In this document: piece after piece, positions 196-9,684 of the stretch | Position numbering within the stretch: position 1 is the first letter of the stretch | Layout: every line of letters starts with the position of its first letter | Source of the DNA: a virus | Direction: 5' to 3' (one strand) | Virus genome (UHGV): UHGV-0226239 | Length of the DNA stretch: 14,336 bases | The notes under the pieces: generated by a model | What the model saw: the letters and a program-made list of their open reading frames with translations, nothing else | Database searches by the model: none | What the model was told of the DNA's origin: nothing | Translations under genes and position numbers: made by a program

Positions 196-429
196 ATGCG
201 CATTGAAATAATGATCGATAAAGAGCAGAAGATTAGCCAGTCTACCCTGGACGCCCTTGAATCCGAGCTTTACCGCAATCTGCGCCCCCTGTATCCCAAA
301 ACGGTAATTCGCATTCGCAAAGGTAGCTCTAACGGTGTGGAACTAACCGGACTGCAACTGGATGAAGAAAGAAAACAAGTGATGAAAATTATGCAGAAGG
401 TGTGGGAGGACGACAGCTGGCTGCATTAA
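196..429 (+). CDS. DinI-like protein (77 aa if started at internal ATG 196)
   Basis: Translation MRIEIMIDK...DALESEL...VWEDDSWLH resembles the DinI family (E. coli DinI begins MRIEVTIAK and ends with an acidic, Trp-containing tail). GAGGTGA RBS sits 5 nt upstream of ATG 196. The ORF-track start at 124 adds 24 residues with no RBS support. Confidence 0.65.
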   Translation: MRIEIMIDKEQKISQSTLDALESELYRNLRPLYPKTVIRIRKGSSNGVELTGLQLDEERKQVMKIMQKVWEDDSWLH

Positions 430-467: not shown

Positions 468-621
468 TAGTTTGGGCAATGAGTGAAATAAGGCGTAAGG
501 TGGGCGGTTATTTTGATAAGTGATCGTCCGCTTTGTGTCAGAAGCAGAAGTGGGAGTGTCTGAGACTCTCTAAAAGTTGATGATTCACTTACAAAACCAT
601 TTTCCTGATGGATGCTTACAC

Positions 622-957
622 TTACGAATGATCATTCTGTTTAGTCTTCATGAGAAAATCCCGAATCTTTGCCAAGTTTGAGTTTTCGGGGATTGAATCC
701 ATGTACGGATCACGCTCAAACACTAATTGCTCAGATTCAACGAAAGCCTGCCACTCTACTGGGTCTAGCTCAAATCCCATTGCTGTCATATCACTTTCAT
801 CTTCCCCCTCGATCCAGTGGACTAAATAAAACAATTCATCATCAGGAGAATCATCCTCACCATCAACAATATCAACATCGGTTACAGTGATACGTAGGGT
901 GGGATCGATTTTTGAGACATAAATTCCTAACTGTGGTATAGGGGGAATATTGTTCAT
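622..957 (-). CDS. Hypothetical strongly acidic protein, 111 aa
   Basis: ORF with strong RBS (AAAGGAG, about 6 nt before ATG at 957 on the minus strand); about 27 Asp/Glu versus about 7 Lys/Arg/His; no recognisable catalytic motif. Confidence 0.55.
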   Translation of the reverse strand: MNNIPPIPQLGIYVSKIDPTLRITVTDVDIVDGEDDSPDDELFYLVHWIEGEDESDMTAMGFELDPVEWQAFVESEQLVFERDPYMDSIPENSNLAKIRDFLMKTKQNDHS

Positions 958-1336
958 GGAAACTCCTTTTATTGGTGCTTGCTATTTGAATAAAAATACG
1001 CCAAACAGAGTGTTAACTGTGAATATGGAAAGAATCGTTGTAAGTACCCCGCTTAGGTGTCCCATTCTATTTTAGAGGTTCTCGTGCATATGGATTATGT
1101 TATCTGAAAGTTAACTTCCGCTTCCCGTTCACAGCGAACATTCATCTTTGTAAACCCGTATGATCCGTTTTTCAAGTGGCCATTCAGATACGGATTTTCA
1201 CTTCCTTGACAGTGCATGACTATGCTGCATGAAATCGCATGATCGATTGAGGATCGTCTTTGCTCAGATCCGCCAGAACTGGCGGGCTTTTGCTCATGTC
1301 ATGCATGTGCATGAAAACCACTGCATAAAGCGGGCA

Positions 1337-1355
1337 GGCGTGGCGGGGATACGAG
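1337..1355. other. Candidate cos (cohesive end) site of the P2/186 type
   Basis: GGCGTGGCGGGGATACGAG: the first 13 nt match the 19-nt cohesive-end sequence of P2/186 as I remember it (GGCG[A/T]GGCGGGGAAAGCA[C/T]); it lies in a non-coding stretch near the Q end of the packaging module. Recalled from memory, not aligned. Confidence 0.3.
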
Positions 1356-1527: not shown

Positions 1528-2673
1528 GTGGCAAATGATATCTTACATTTAGTTCTTGATTCGAATGTTCTTCATGAAGAAGGTTTAAATTCGAATGATA
1601 TGAAGTTATTGAAAAAATATACCGACAAAGGTTTGATTAGAATTCATTTACCTTCACTTGTGGCTAAGGAGTTTGTAACACGAAAATCAAATAATTTAAT
1701 TGATGGTCTGGAGAAATCAAAACAGTCTTTGGATTCTGTTGAGAGAGATGCTAGAGGAATAAGTGAAGAGTTATTGGAATGTTTTGATGAACTAAAGAAA
1801 AAAATCATCAATGCAAAAAATGACATTGGGAATAAACCACAGGAATGTTTTGACCGTTGGGTGCAGGACTTTAAAGTTTCTATTGTTGACACAATACCTG
1901 ACTCTGTAAATGAAGTTTTTAACGATTACTTTTTAGGTAAAGGTGTCTTCAGAAAACCAAAGGCTAGGGAAGATATACCTGATGCTTTTATTTGCGTAAC
2001 GATAATTAATTTGCTATCTGAGTTTGGCAGTATTGTTGTAGTAAATAAAGATAAAGCTTTTCGTAAACATTTGTCTGAGTATGATAAAATACAGGTGCTT
2101 CAGAGTCTGCGTGAAGTCTTTTCTTTAAAAGGTATAGATTTATTAGAAGATGAGTCAATGTTGGATTTAATCCATTCTGCTGAGTTTGTCTCTGCACTTA
2201 GCCAGTATCTACGACAGCGCCCAGATGCATTTGAGTATGTGTATTTACATGAGGATGAAATATCAAAAATAGCATTAATTGGTCAAAGGATATATGGCGC
2301 TAGTATAGAAGTAGAAAATTATAACGATATTGCTAATGCAAGTATTTCTGATGCTAGAAGTATTGATGAGCATACCTATTCGGCTTTGCTTAGTTTTGAT
2401 ATGAATGTAAATATAAATTATATAACTGATTATGGCACATTTCTCGATATAGAAAGAACACATGGTAGAAGACCAGAGATGGAAAGTATGAATGGTGACG
2501 GTATTTGTGATGTGTCTGAAAATGCTTTAACAAAGTTTTATGGTGATTTGACCGTCAAATTCAAAAAAAACAGAGAAGAGATTGACAAAAGTGATATTGT
2601 TAGATTTCTCCTTGATGAGGATATATGTGTTCAGTTTGAGATAAAAAACATTGAAATAATTGAAATGTTATAA
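1528..2673 (+). CDS. AT-rich cargo gene: 381-aa protein with N-terminal PIN-like nuclease motifs and a C-terminal domain of unknown function; candidate single-gene anti-phage/abortive-infection effector
   Basis: GTG start at 1528 preceded by AGGGAG with 8-nt spacing. About 30% GC against about 58% in flanking phage genes. Motifs D11 (ILHLVLDSNVL), E48 (PSLVAKEF), D152 (DIPDAFICVTI) and D175 (VVVNKDKAF) fit the four conserved acidic positions of PIN domains, with an insertion of about 55 aa between the second and third. Followed by a hairpin terminator. Confidence 0.8.
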   Translation: MANDILHLVLDSNVLHEEGLNSNDMKLLKKYTDKGLIRIHLPSLVAKEFVTRKSNNLIDGLEKSKQSLDSVERDARGISEELLECFDELKKKIINAKNDIGNKPQECFDRWVQDFKVSIVDTIPDSVNEVFNDYFLGKGVFRKPKAREDIPDAFICVTIINLLSEFGSIVVVNKDKAFRKHLSEYDKIQVLQSLREVFSLKGIDLLEDESMLDLIHSAEFVSALSQYLRQRPDAFEYVYLHEDEISKIALIGQRIYGASIEVENYNDIANASISDARSIDEHTYSALLSFDMNVNINYITDYGTFLDIERTHGRRPEMESMNGDGICDVSENALTKFYGDLTVKFKKNREEIDKSDIVRFLLDEDICVQFEIKNIEIIEML

Positions 2674-3741: not shown

Positions 3742-5504
3742 AAAATCTCCACAATATTGCTGGTATTGGCGGACTCGCCTTGCAGCGGTTCGTTAAACAG
3801 TGCGTGCATCGTTGCCCAGGCCAGATCCGCATGGCTGGCTTCTTCGCTGCGGCTGGCTTCATAGGTCGGGCGGTTGCCACTGGCGGTGGTGGAGCGACGG
3901 ATTGCCATAAAGGACTGCGCTATGTCGGTGTGTCCGGCGTCAAACTCCAGACGGCGGTGGCTGATAATGTCGTAGGCCTTGAGTACCAGGGCGTTTTTAA
4001 CGTTGGGGTTGTAGACAAACTCCCGGACGGCAGGAAAGAATGCTTTCACGTTCTCGTAAACCCCGTGGCCGACGCCAGTTGAGTCGATGCCGATGTATGT
4101 CACGTTGTACTGTTCGGTCAGTTTTTTGATGGCGTCAGCCTGGGCGCGGAAGTCCATCCCGCGCCACTGGTGACGCTCAAGAATGCGGAACTTACCGCCC
4201 GGCACGGCTGGCGGTGCCACCACCACGCACCCGGCGCTGTCGCCGTTCTGCGTACCTTTTGCCGGGTCATAACCGATCCACACCTCGCGCCAGCCAAACG
4301 GGCGCAGCGCCAGTGCATGAAAGTCGGTCCAGACTTCCCAGCTGTCCACCATGCACGCCTGCAGCTCGCTGAGCGGGAACACGGACGCGAGATCGTCCAC
4401 AAACTCGCACATCAGCAGGTTCTGGTATTCGTCCGGGCTGTACTCCATGCGCAACTGGTCAAGGTCGAACAGGTTGCAGCCGCCGCGCACCGCATCTTCC
4501 ACGGTGACTATCTGGCGGTACTGCCCGTCTGCGCACAGCAGGCCGGGGGCCAGATTGCGGTGGGACAGGTCGATGTCCACCTTATCGGCTTTGTTGCGCC
4601 CTCGGTTGAACAGCGCACCGGACCAGAACGGATAAGCACTGTGTGTCAGGCTGGATGGCGTGGAAAAATAGGTTTGTCGCCATTTTTTGTGAATAGCCAT
4701 ACCGGAAGCCACTTTGCGCAGCTCCTGGAATTTCGGTATCCAGAAATATTCATCCAGATACAGGTTGCCGTGGTAACTCTGGGCCGTGCGGGCATTGGTG
4801 CCGAGGAAGTAAAGCGTGGCCCCGTTAGGAAGCACCATCGGATCGCCTTTCAGCTCCACCTCCACTTCTTTGGCGAAGTCGATGATGTACTGCTTAAAGA
4901 CGTGGGCCTGTGCCTTACTGGCGGAAAGGAAAATCTGGTTACGCCCGGTAAGCAGGGCGTCAATCAGGGCTTCACGGGCAAAGTAAAAGGTCGCGCCGAT
5001 CTGGCGTGACTTCAGCAGATTGCGGATGCGGTTGGTTTTTCCGGCTTCCCACCAGTGGCGCTGGTAGTTGAACATGGAGGAATGGAAGATTTCTTCCAGT
5101 TTCTCAATCTGTTCATCGGTGAAAACATTCTTTTCCGGCTGACGGCGCGGGCCCTTATTGCGGTTGGCGACGTTAGGGTTTAAGTCAGCTTCGTTGCCGC
5201 CATTGTTAAACTTGCCGATCCGCGCGTGGCGCTCCGACTGGCGCGCCAGCAGGTCAATCTCTTTGAAATCTTTCCCTTCTTTGTGCTCCTTCATGATGAG
5301 CTGGCAGTAGCGTGCGGCGGTGGTGAGCTGCATCTGATCCAGCGGCCCATAGTCACCCCACTTGTCGCGTTTTTTCCAGCTGTGAACGGTTGCAACTTTC
5401 TCGCCCAGCATTTCAGCTATGCGGGCTACGCGGTATCCCTGAAAGTACAGCAGCATGGCCTGCCGACGGGGATCGAGATCTGCGGGTGTCAGTGTGGTGT
5501 TCAT
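3738..5504 (-). CDS. P: Terminase large (ATPase) subunit, P2 gpP-like, 588 aa
   Basis: Size and synteny match P2 gpP (about 590 aa), immediately upstream of Q on the minus strand and divergent from O. Confidence 0.9.
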   Translation of the reverse strand: MNTTLTPADLDPRRQAMLLYFQGYRVARIAEMLGEKVATVHSWKKRDKWGDYGPLDQMQLTTAARYCQLIMKEHKEGKDFKEIDLLARQSERHARIGKFNNGGNEADLNPNVANRNKGPRRQPEKNVFTDEQIEKLEEIFHSSMFNYQRHWWEAGKTNRIRNLLKSRQIGATFYFAREALIDALLTGRNQIFLSASKAQAHVFKQYIIDFAKEVEVELKGDPMVLPNGATLYFLGTNARTAQSYHGNLYLDEYFWIPKFQELRKVASGMAIHKKWRQTYFSTPSSLTHSAYPFWSGALFNRGRNKADKVDIDLSHRNLAPGLLCADGQYRQIVTVEDAVRGGCNLFDLDQLRMEYSPDEYQNLLMCEFVDDLASVFPLSELQACMVDSWEVWTDFHALALRPFGWREVWIGYDPAKGTQNGDSAGCVVVAPPAVPGGKFRILERHQWRGMDFRAQADAIKKLTEQYNVTYIGIDSTGVGHGVYENVKAFFPAVREFVYNPNVKNALVLKAYDIISHRRLEFDAGHTDIAQSFMAIRRSTTASGNRPTYEASRSEEASHADLAWATMHALFNEPLQGESANTSNIVEIF

Positions 5505-8304: not shown

Positions 8305-8769
8305 ATGAAGTTTGTTGCGCCAGAACAGGCACCGGAACAGGCGGAAATCATCAGAAATACGCCGTTCTGGCCTGATGTGGACCTGTCGGAGTTTCGCAGT
8401 GTCATGCGCACTGACGGCACGGTGACGCAGCCGCGTTTAAAGCAGGTTGCGCTGTCGGCAATTTCGGAGGTCAACGCAGAGCTGTATGAGTTTCGCAGAC
8501 GCCAGCAGATGCTGGGATATGTCTCGCTGGCAGAGGTTCCTGCAGAACAGCTGGACGGGAAAAGTGAGCGCATTCAGCACTATTTCAACGCGGTTTACTG
8601 CTGGGCACGCGCCATGCTCAACGAACGTTACCAGGACTATGACGCCACGGCATCCGGTGTGAAGCGGGGCGAGGAACTGGCGGAAGCCAGCGGTGATTTA
8701 TGGCGTGACGCCCGCTGGGCCATCAGCCGGGTGCAGGACGCGCCGCACTGCACAGTGGAGCTTATCTGA
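8305..8769 (+). CDS. L: Head completion/stabilisation protein, P2 gpL-like, 154 aa from ATG 8305
   Basis: AGGAGG RBS 7 nt before ATG 8305; the ORF-track start at 8242 lacks an RBS. C-terminal DLWRDARWAISRVQ...HCTVELI resembles P2 gpL. Confidence 0.85.
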   Translation: MKFVAPEQAPEQAEIIRNTPFWPDVDLSEFRSVMRTDGTVTQPRLKQVALSAISEVNAELYEFRRRQQMLGYVSLAEVPAEQLDGKSERIQHYFNAVYCWARAMLNERYQDYDATASGVKRGEELAEASGDLWRDARWAISRVQDAPHCTVELI

Positions 8770-8972
8770 TGAAAGTGCGTGCGCATCAGTATGACACGGT
8801 GGACGCGCTTTGCTGGCGTCATTACGGGCGCACGCAGGGTGTCACGGAGCAGGTACTGAAGGCAAATCCGGGGCTTGCCGAATACGGCCCCTTTTTACCT
8901 CACGGGCTGCAGGTGGAGCTGCCGGACATTCCGACCACCACCACCGTGCAGACCGTCCAGCTATGGGACTGA
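8769..8972 (+). CDS. X: Tail protein X, P2 gpX-like (LysM-like), 67 aa
   Basis: 67 aa, the same length as P2 gpX; the motif HYGRTQGVTEQVLKANPGLAEYGPFLPHG...ELPD resembles gpX; start overlaps the L stop. Confidence 0.85.
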   Translation: MKVRAHQYDTVDALCWRHYGRTQGVTEQVLKANPGLAEYGPFLPHGLQVELPDIPTTTTVQTVQLWD

Positions 8973-8975
8973 ATT

Positions 8976-9191
8976 ATGACGCTTGAGCGAATCAGCGCCT
9001 TTATCACGTATTGCATCGCCGTCGTGCTGGCCTGGCTGGGCGATTTGTCCATCAAGGATGCCTCAACGCTGGGCGGCCTGATGATCGGTGTGCTGATGCT
9101 GGCTATCAACTGGTACTACAAACACAAAGCCTACCAGCTTCTGCGCGACGGGCAGATCACGCGGGAGGACTATGAATCCATCAATCGTTAA
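8976..9191 (+). CDS. Holin, class II / pinholin-like, 71 aa with two predicted TMDs
   Basis: Two hydrophobic segments (ISAFITYCIAVVLAWLG and LGGLMIGVLMLAINWYY) followed by a charged C-terminal tail; sits immediately upstream of and overlapping the endolysin gene, in the position of P2 Y. Confidence 0.7.
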   Translation: MTLERISAFITYCIAVVLAWLGDLSIKDASTLGGLMIGVLMLAINWYYKHKAYQLLRDGQITREDYESINR

Positions 9192-9684
9192 ACGCTGCCT
9201 TGTCGGGACCGTGCTGGCTATTGCTGCCACGCTGCCGGGTTTTCAGCAGCTTCACACCTCCGTGGAGGGGCTGAAACTGATTGCCGATTACGAAGGCTGT
9301 CGTCTGCAGCCGTATCAGTGCAGCGCGGGTGTCTGGACCGACGGCATTGGTAATACGTCGGGCGTCATTCCCGGCAAAACCATTACGGAGCGACAGGCAG
9401 CGGAAGGGCTGATCTCCAACGTGCTGCGTGTGGAGCGGGCGCTGGAAAGGTGTGTGAAGCAACAGCCGCCGCAGAAGGTGTATGACGCGGTGGTGTCGTT
9501 TGCCTTCAACGTGGGAACGGGCAATGCCTGCAGTTCCACGCTGGTGAAATTACTCAATCAGCGGCGCTGGGCGGATGCGTGCCGACAGTTGCCGCGCTGG
9601 GTTTATGTAAAAGGTGTGTTTAATCAGGGGCTGGATAACCGCCGTGCGCGGGAGATGGCCTGGTGTTTACAGGGAGCAAACTGA
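9172..9684 (+). CDS. Endolysin, GH24 T4-lysozyme-like, with an N-terminal SAR (signal-anchor-release) segment, 170 aa
   Basis: Weakly hydrophobic Gly/Ala-rich N-terminus (CLVGTVLAIAATLPGF); catalytic motif E-x8-C-x5-T in YEGCRLQPYQCSAGVWT; FAFNVGTGN block typical of phage lysozymes; GGGAGG RBS upstream. Confidence 0.85.
   Translation: MNPSIVKRCLVGTVLAIAATLPGFQQLHTSVEGLKLIADYEGCRLQPYQCSAGVWTDGIGNTSGVIPGKTITERQAAEGLISNVLRVERALERCVKQQPPQKVYDAVVSFAFNVGTGNACSSTLVKLLNQRRWADACRQLPRWVYVKGVFNQGLDNRRAREMAWCLQGAN

Follow-up and report, generated by a model that had tools for sequence, protein, structure and literature searches.

A small, strongly acidic DUF8087 gene carried as a mobile cassette beside cos in a P2-like prophage: identity, history and candidate functions

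What does a short and strongly acidic gene do beside the cos site of a temperate phage? The question is raised by the 14,336-nucleotide stretch of virus genome UHGV-0226239 analyzed herein (the window), a Fels-2/P2-like prophage in which the gene order is gpA, a 62-aa gene, a DinI-like gene, the acidic ORF (on the opposite strand), cos, variable cargo, portal and terminase. A sequence-only reading had suggested that the ORF encodes a DNA mimic of the Ocr or ArdA classes, or an immunity-type protein, carried in a typical moron context. We consider in turn what the gene is, how it reached this position and what its product may do.

The acidic gene and its family

The ORF occupies positions 622..957 of the minus strand, starts with ATG and encodes a product of 111 aa and 12.8 kDa. 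With 26 Asp and Glu residues and seven Lys and Arg residues the protein has a net charge of −19, close to the −20 first estimated, and a pI of 4.05, and the two acidic clusters pointed out earlier are indeed present as residues 32–41 (DGEDDSPDDE) and 50–56 (EGEDESD). The strong ribosome-binding site that had been noticed is AAGGAG at 963..968 (minus strand), 5 nt before the ATG, and it is kept in every copy of the gene cassette described below. The GC content of the ORF is 40.8%, as compared with 49% for the window and 51–55% for the structural genes, and this low value fits an acquired accessory gene.

The protein is identical to WP_001059831.1, which is given the PGAP name ‘DUF8087 domain-containing protein’ and is named ‘Ybl33’ by one source, in E. 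coli B/BL21. The gene is annotated in BL21 and related B strains, and the exact protein sequence is found on at least 1000 public contigs. PHROG 17127 matches it over residues 1–111 of 111 (E = 2e-70). A search of 5.8 billion proteins returned homologues at ≥50% identity in 61 protein clusters, all from Enterobacterales, and every one of the 61 carries a precomputed hit to PF26332 (DUF8087), a model more recent than the Pfam release used for our local scan. A profile search of 1.84 billion representatives yielded no more than about 30 further, distant relatives of 70–106 aa, all of them acidic and with a common core at residues 5–80. The longer family members are frameshift or mis-start artifacts, and among them there are no informative domain fusions. 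DUF8087 is thus an already catalogued family without an assigned function, and a literature search for DUF8087, PF26332, WP_001059831 and ybl33 found no paper.

The gene is clearly under selection. Between diverged copies, including pairs in which both are solo cassettes, dN/dS is 0.09–0.27 at a synonymous-site divergence of 10–45%, and the reading frame is intact in at least six genera, as it is in relatives with as little as about 30% identity. Within the family P8, G11 and W69 are invariant and Y13, D56, E63 and E68 nearly so. The emphasis that had been placed on acidity holds for the family as a whole, as all 59 aligned relatives are acidic (net charge −8 to −22) and D56, E63 and E68 are conserved, but it does not hold for the D/E-rich loop at residues 31–40, which varies in length and is absent from some relatives. 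With high confidence, 622..957 is a real, conserved and selected DUF8087 gene and not a chance ORF.

The prophage slot, the cassette and its history

The surroundings of the gene proved to be much as first described. The DinI-like gene at 196..429 on the plus strand (PF06183, E = 6.6e-23) is convergent with the acidic ORF, and the cos-like region contains a P2-type cohesive-end sequence, GGCGTGGCGGGGATACGAG, at 1337..1355 (plus strand), which was placed by aligning the window to the circularized ends of the P2 reference, where the annotated cos reads GGCGAGGCGGGGAAAGCAC. The start of the acidic ORF is 380 bp from cos. Positions 1–1361 of the window are nearly identical among E. coli prophages of this type, and homology ends 6 bp past cos, where the cargo begins. 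Homology to Fels-2 and vB_EcoM-813R9 is limited to positions 1–427/439 and 1211–1361, such that the segment 440..1210 is lineage-specific and absent from both. Among 5426 complete E. coli genomes the cassette is found in about 131, while about 1300 have the flanking cos region only, and hence it is present in only about 10% of the E. coli genomes that have such a cos flank.

The acidic gene fills the slot between gpA and cosR, and it does so in the same position and orientation as old/tin of P2: both stand on the gpA side of cosR and point leftward, with a promoter region near cos. The proteins themselves are different, as P2 Old is an ATPase-nuclease and Tin is 253 aa in length, whereas the acidic ORF encodes an unrelated protein of 111 aa with no recognizable enzymatic domain. 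In the P2 reference old and tin are transcribed from near cosR, and by alignment the old-tin transcript start maps to about position 1187 of the window, adjoining a weak promoter candidate at 1194..1222 on the minus strand (TAGTCA, 17-nt spacer, GAAAAT). A standard promoter scan gave nothing at 1194..1222, and the promoter role of this element is putative and read from its sequence. The conserved 170-nt leader of the acidic gene has no Rfam match and a folding z-score of 0.12, and a structured or regulatory RNA at this position was rejected on these two grounds.

Several other features of the region were noted in passing. On the plus strand, positions 1206–1235 hold a perfect −35 element (TTGACA), an 18-nt spacer and TGAAAT, pointing across cos to the cargo, and the promoter scan does not report this candidate because its −10 element lacks A at position 2. 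The hexamer GGAAGC (minus strand) occurs 5′ of the acidic gene in about two copies in the window (~1119–1139) and in about seven tandem copies in the E. coli variant loci L035–L037 (~7830–7880 in L035), a difference which indicates that this repeat tract in the leader is variable. The same variant loci have a longer insert before the DinI-like gene (8323–9610) that comprises the DUF8087 gene, a 71-codon integrase stub, a 127-aa membrane protein (PHROG 26730) and a 139-aa GNAT acetyltransferase, and the version of the slot in the window looks like a deletion derivative of an insert of this type. Two genes on the plus strand stand 3′ of gpA, one of 57–62 aa (12–185 in the window) and the DinI-like gene (196–429); a note in the Fels-2 record compares the latter to TumB of PSP3, and by position the two may be the equivalents of the TumA/TumB pair in phages of the PSP3 type.

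On the other side of cos, the cos-portal interval is a known defense hotspot of P2 (PMC9122126). Among 31 DUF8087-bearing loci this interval contains 21 kinds of cargo, including retron Ec67, retron Ec86 (in BL21), an Sll1717 ATPase and, in the window, a PIN_12 protein, and in three of the loci it is nearly empty. The cargo therefore varies independently of the acidic gene, which for this reason is not part of a neighbor's system, and the possibility that it is a component of the adjacent retron, PIN or ATPase system was rejected. The PIN_12 cargo gene (1528..2673, plus strand) is an observation of separate interest. It has a GC content of only 32%, and its product, 381 aa in length, has a PIN_12 domain at the N-terminus (E = 9e-21) and matches no PADLOC model. 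The gene is present in only 4 of the 5426 complete E. coli genomes, the other 30 DUF8087-bearing loci all lack it, and the protein is a candidate for an uncharacterized single-gene defense system.

The mobile unit itself can be delimited by comparison with other genera. The block at 586..1135 is shared, at 83–90% nucleotide identity, with loci in Serratia, Lonsdalea, Symbiopectobacterium, Proteus and Morganella and with an unrelated prophage. At its left end, 585..635 on the minus strand is the 5′ relic of an integrase gene, MIIRKCKHPSGKWFCK followed by a stop codon; this 16-codon stub overlaps the stop and the 3′ end of the acidic gene and matches the N-terminus of P2-type integrases, and a longer relic of 71 codons is kept in L035 and L009. 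At the other end, 982..1065 (minus strand) is probably what remains of a Flk-like gene, namely the part that encodes its C-terminal membrane tail (ending in GVLTTILSIFTVNTLFGVFLFK and a stop codon). The last codons before the ribosome-binding site, TLFGVFLFK and a stop, resemble the C-terminal membrane tail of a Flk_N-domain protein, and since alignment with intact Flk-like genes is limited to the last ~9 codons and the ~50 nt that precede the ATG, this relic is probable and not proven.

Both relics point to the same source. In P2-like prophages of Klebsiella, Enterobacter and Buttiauxella the genes cI, a Flk-like gene, DUF8087 and int lie in this order on one strand, with an overlap between the DUF8087 stop and the int start, and the intact integrases of this arrangement start with MTVRKLPSGKWLSECY. 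The integrase relic and the probable Flk-like tail relic therefore suggest that the cassette originated in such an operon, and most probably a single-gene cassette of about 550 bp was excised from the cI-flk-DUF8087-int operon of Klebsiella/Enterobacter P2-like prophages and then redistributed. The Flk-like gene was found in 26 P2-like viral contigs or loci, of which eight have DUF8087 and 18 do not, and where it is absent the interval between the Flk-like gene and int is filled by unrelated genes.

The interval between the Flk-like gene and int is a general accessory-gene site of the lysogeny operon. Some P2-like prophages, among the loci L074 (4152–5183), L083 (4157–5232) and L088 (4190–5279), have a short DUF8087 relative followed by a zinc-ribbon-like protein of ~117 aa and then a tail-anchored coiled-coil protein of ~135 aa, and L088 has the latter two without DUF8087. 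The slot often holds instead a protein of 288–294 aa with an N-terminus that is BRCT-like by eye (L075, L077, L082 and L084, ~4130–5013), and in other loci it holds small secreted proteins.

Across all of its contexts the DUF8087 gene is found on mobile elements only. The carriers include P2-like prophages (at two positions), CP4/P4-like islands, another type of prophage, an inovirus-like region and Int-AlpA-GPA elements, and frequent neighbors are the defense genes and systems Mokosh MkoC, PDC-S45, retrons, SRA-HNH, Hachiman, Gabija-like and TIR-STAND. In islands of Morganella and Proteus the gene adjoins Mokosh MkoC, and the same islands also have KlcA-type anti-restriction, DUF932, YeeP and AlpA genes. 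It adjoins PDC-S45 in another prophage, lies beside Zot-like inovirus genes in Xenorhabdus, is part of an element with tandem recombinases and an MC2/CTD6 conflict system in Serratia, and is an orphan at the pgsA-uvrC site in Pantoea. The distant relatives, from Nitrosospira and metagenomes, are beside an integrase gene or one gene away from it in all six loci examined, and their small elements carry TIR-STAND and Gabija-like genes, R-M, SRA-HNH and Hachiman. In L058, L069 and L070 the DUF8087 gene and an annotated AlpA(HTH_17) gene point away from each other, and the latter is followed by a GPA-type or truncated gene. These three loci and L061 have a core of Int, DUF8087, AlpA(HTH_17) and a GPA-type initiator, with a cargo that includes BglII R-M, and they look like a family of defense-carrying, satellite-like elements.

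The accessory character that had been claimed for the gene is thereby borne out, as it is a conserved gene in a variable region beside cos, with copies across related prophages. We conclude with high confidence that DUF8087 is an accessory gene in its own right, spread among mobile elements as a single-gene cassette.

Predicted structure and comparison with known inhibitors

The 111-aa protein is predicted to fold as a compact small beta-barrel with a C-terminal helix (pLDDT 77.7), for which fold comparison returned weak, SH3-like resemblances. Neither a signal peptide nor a membrane segment is visible in the sequence, and no catalytic-type residues are among the conserved positions of the DUF8087 alignment. 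Judged from these sequence features, the protein looks like a small, soluble, non-enzymatic binder rather than an enzyme, and it probably works by binding and blocking another protein. A known acidic protein with SH3 topology is CarS of Myxococcus xanthus, an antirepressor that mimics operator DNA.

The specific analogy with Ocr and ArdA did not survive comparison. A Pfam scan at E ≤ 1 returned no family for the acidic protein and thus no similarity to Ocr (PF08684), and profile searches of PDB sequences gave nothing relevant. Ocr is an all-helical elongated dimer that mimics bent B-DNA, whereas the DUF8087 model is a beta-barrel, and ArdA (PF07275) is a three-domain protein to which the acidic protein has neither sequence nor predicted fold similarity. 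Membership in either class was therefore rejected, with no match in sequence or fold, and more generally the predicted barrel and helix matched no known DNA-mimic fold, nor did the searches made here match the protein in sequence or fold to any known DNA mimic or anti-defense protein. What Ocr, ArdA and the DUF8087 protein have in common is that they are small, strongly acidic, encoded by mobile elements and without a partner gene, and the dense carboxylates of the DNA-mimic class are present as well (−19 over 111 aa). The genomic positions differ: genes of the Ocr and ArdA classes are located where a lytic phage genome enters first or in the leading region of a plasmid, whereas the acidic gene belongs to transcription units of the lysogeny type (the P2 old/tin slot and the cI-int operon) and is not in the classic early-entry position of Ocr. 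The gene is absent from the deposited phage genomes of INPHARED (50,697) and is present in only 1 of the 72,556 plasmids of PLSDB, and on the basis of this single match a plasmid leading-region gene was rejected as its identity.

Another parallel is provided by anti-CRISPR genes, known inhibitors that are expressed in the integrated state. Those expressed by prophages are, like DUF8087, single small acidic genes in variable slots of temperate elements, but they have no homology to DUF8087, which also lacks an adjacent Aca-type regulator. The ORF was compared with defense systems too. It matches no model of PADLOC, which models defense systems and not anti-defense proteins, and nothing in NCBIfam, and a known defense system was dropped as its identity on these two results.

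Candidate functions

We tentatively propose that the protein acts as an acidic decoy and blocks a basic host protein stoichiometrically, with a defense or nucleoid protein as the target, and although we would not call this reading probable, it is the one we prefer. Small, strongly acidic proteins that are encoded by mobile elements without a partner are typically inhibitors, as exemplified by Ocr, ArdA, Arn, Gam, Ugi and several Acr proteins. A conserved acidic surface of D56, E63, D65 and E68 around the invariant W69 would bind a basic, probably nucleic-acid-binding, surface and so block the target protein one-to-one; DNA mimicry would be only one way in which such acidic-to-basic binding might be achieved. 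The most likely target would be a conserved host defense or nucleoid protein, the carrier element being protected as a result, and expression of the gene would take place both in the integrated state and on entry, as is the case for anti-CRISPR genes in prophages. Since the same cassette is found at 83–90% nucleotide identity in six genera, the target must be conserved across Enterobacterales. We hold this blocking mechanism with low to moderate confidence. In its favor we count purifying selection, the acidity of the family, carriage on mobile elements only, the lack of an obligate partner and the defense neighbors; against it we count the lack of a match to any known inhibitor, the absence from deposited phage genomes and near absence from plasmids, slots that are usual in P2-like phages for defense or exclusion, and the unconserved acidic loop. 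Known anti-defense genes have been reported in only 28 of 1511 P2-like elements (PMC13586616).

In a bolder form of the proposal, DUF8087 would have a fold new among inhibitors and, as a mimic of nucleic acid or another kind of acidic decoy, would shut off a conserved enterobacterial defense or nucleoid protein, such as a type I restriction enzyme or H-NS, and many prophages and islands, including the P2 remnant of BL21, would keep it expressed. We regard this full statement as unlikely. As to the target, a host defense or nucleoid protein ranks first, as a tentative choice, ahead of a protein of a superinfecting phage, which is clearly less likely, and the element's own Int, GPA or AlpA, which is slightly less likely again.

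The second of these targets corresponds to an alternative function, and a rather doubtful one, in which the protein is a lysogenic-conversion or exclusion factor that is expressed by the prophage and binds and disables a protein of a superinfecting phage. P2 Tin, for example, poisons the single-strand-binding protein of T-even phages. The acidic gene shares the slot and orientation of P2 old/tin and is part of the cI-int operon in prophages of Klebsiella and Enterobacter, and defense systems are its neighbors; however, it has no match in PADLOC and we know of no single-protein defense of this small, acidic, domain-less kind. Both intervals, cI-int and old/tin, are documented defense hotspots of P2-like phages (PMC9122126, PMC13586616), but the acidic protein appears in the P2 hotspot table only as ‘hypothetical’ (PMC9122126). 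It was not found in the other supplementary files of that study that were searched, and it is likewise absent from the searched supplements of a functional selection for defense genes, which also argues against an exclusion factor.

The third target implies a regulator intrinsic to the element, a role we consider less likely still. By binding Int, the GPA-type initiator or AlpA, the protein would maintain quiescence or tune excision or replication, in function like P4 Cnr or a protein-binding directionality factor. The proximity of an integrase gene in the six distant loci, the divergent AlpA(HTH_17) gene in L058, L069 and L070, the overlap of the DUF8087 stop with the integrase start in the P2-like lysogeny operon, and the GPA/G2P-type initiator encoded by many of the carrier elements examined are all consistent with such a role. 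Against this, purifying selection persists beside a dead integrase stub and in elements with unrelated or distant integrases, the gene is optional in the Flk-Int slot (8 of 26 loci), and it is in only about 10% of the E. coli genomes with such a cos flank.

Two further explanations are very improbable. One makes the protein an antidote to, or immunity partner of, the Flk-like tail-anchored membrane protein encoded next to it, the solo copies being orphan antidotes. The Flk-like gene adjoins DUF8087 in all type-2 loci, its product diverges to 40% identity, and the cassette retains a Flk-like stub, as would be expected after loss of a toxin with the antidote kept. However, 18 of the 26 P2-like loci with a Flk-like gene lack DUF8087 and have unrelated genes in the slot, and the distant relatives have no Flk-like neighbor; this co-occurrence pattern led us to reject the antidote. 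The earlier suggestion of an immunity-type protein fails in the same way, as neither the Flk-like gene nor any of the 21 kinds of cargo in the 31 loci is an obligate partner. The other is a decaying hitch-hiker ORF without a function of its own, with which the two flanking gene relics and the near identity of the E. coli copies (compatible with recent spread rather than selection) would agree, but which is contradicted by dN/dS values of 0.09–0.27 across copies with 10–45% synonymous divergence and by a frame intact in at least six genera and down to about 30% identity.

The significance of the acidic decoy reading depends on its outcome. Were DUF8087 an ordinary accessory gene with a narrow role, it would be of modest interest. 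If it is an inhibitor, it would represent a new fold among the acidic decoys of mobile elements, directed at a host or phage target that is important across Enterobacterales, and E. coli B/BL21 would prove to have, beside its widely used retron Ec86, an active gene that has gone unnoticed. How the cassette is built and where it came from are now clear, and whatever the protein does, the two flanking relics illustrate the way in which one gene is cut from a lysogeny operon and redistributed among defense hotspots.
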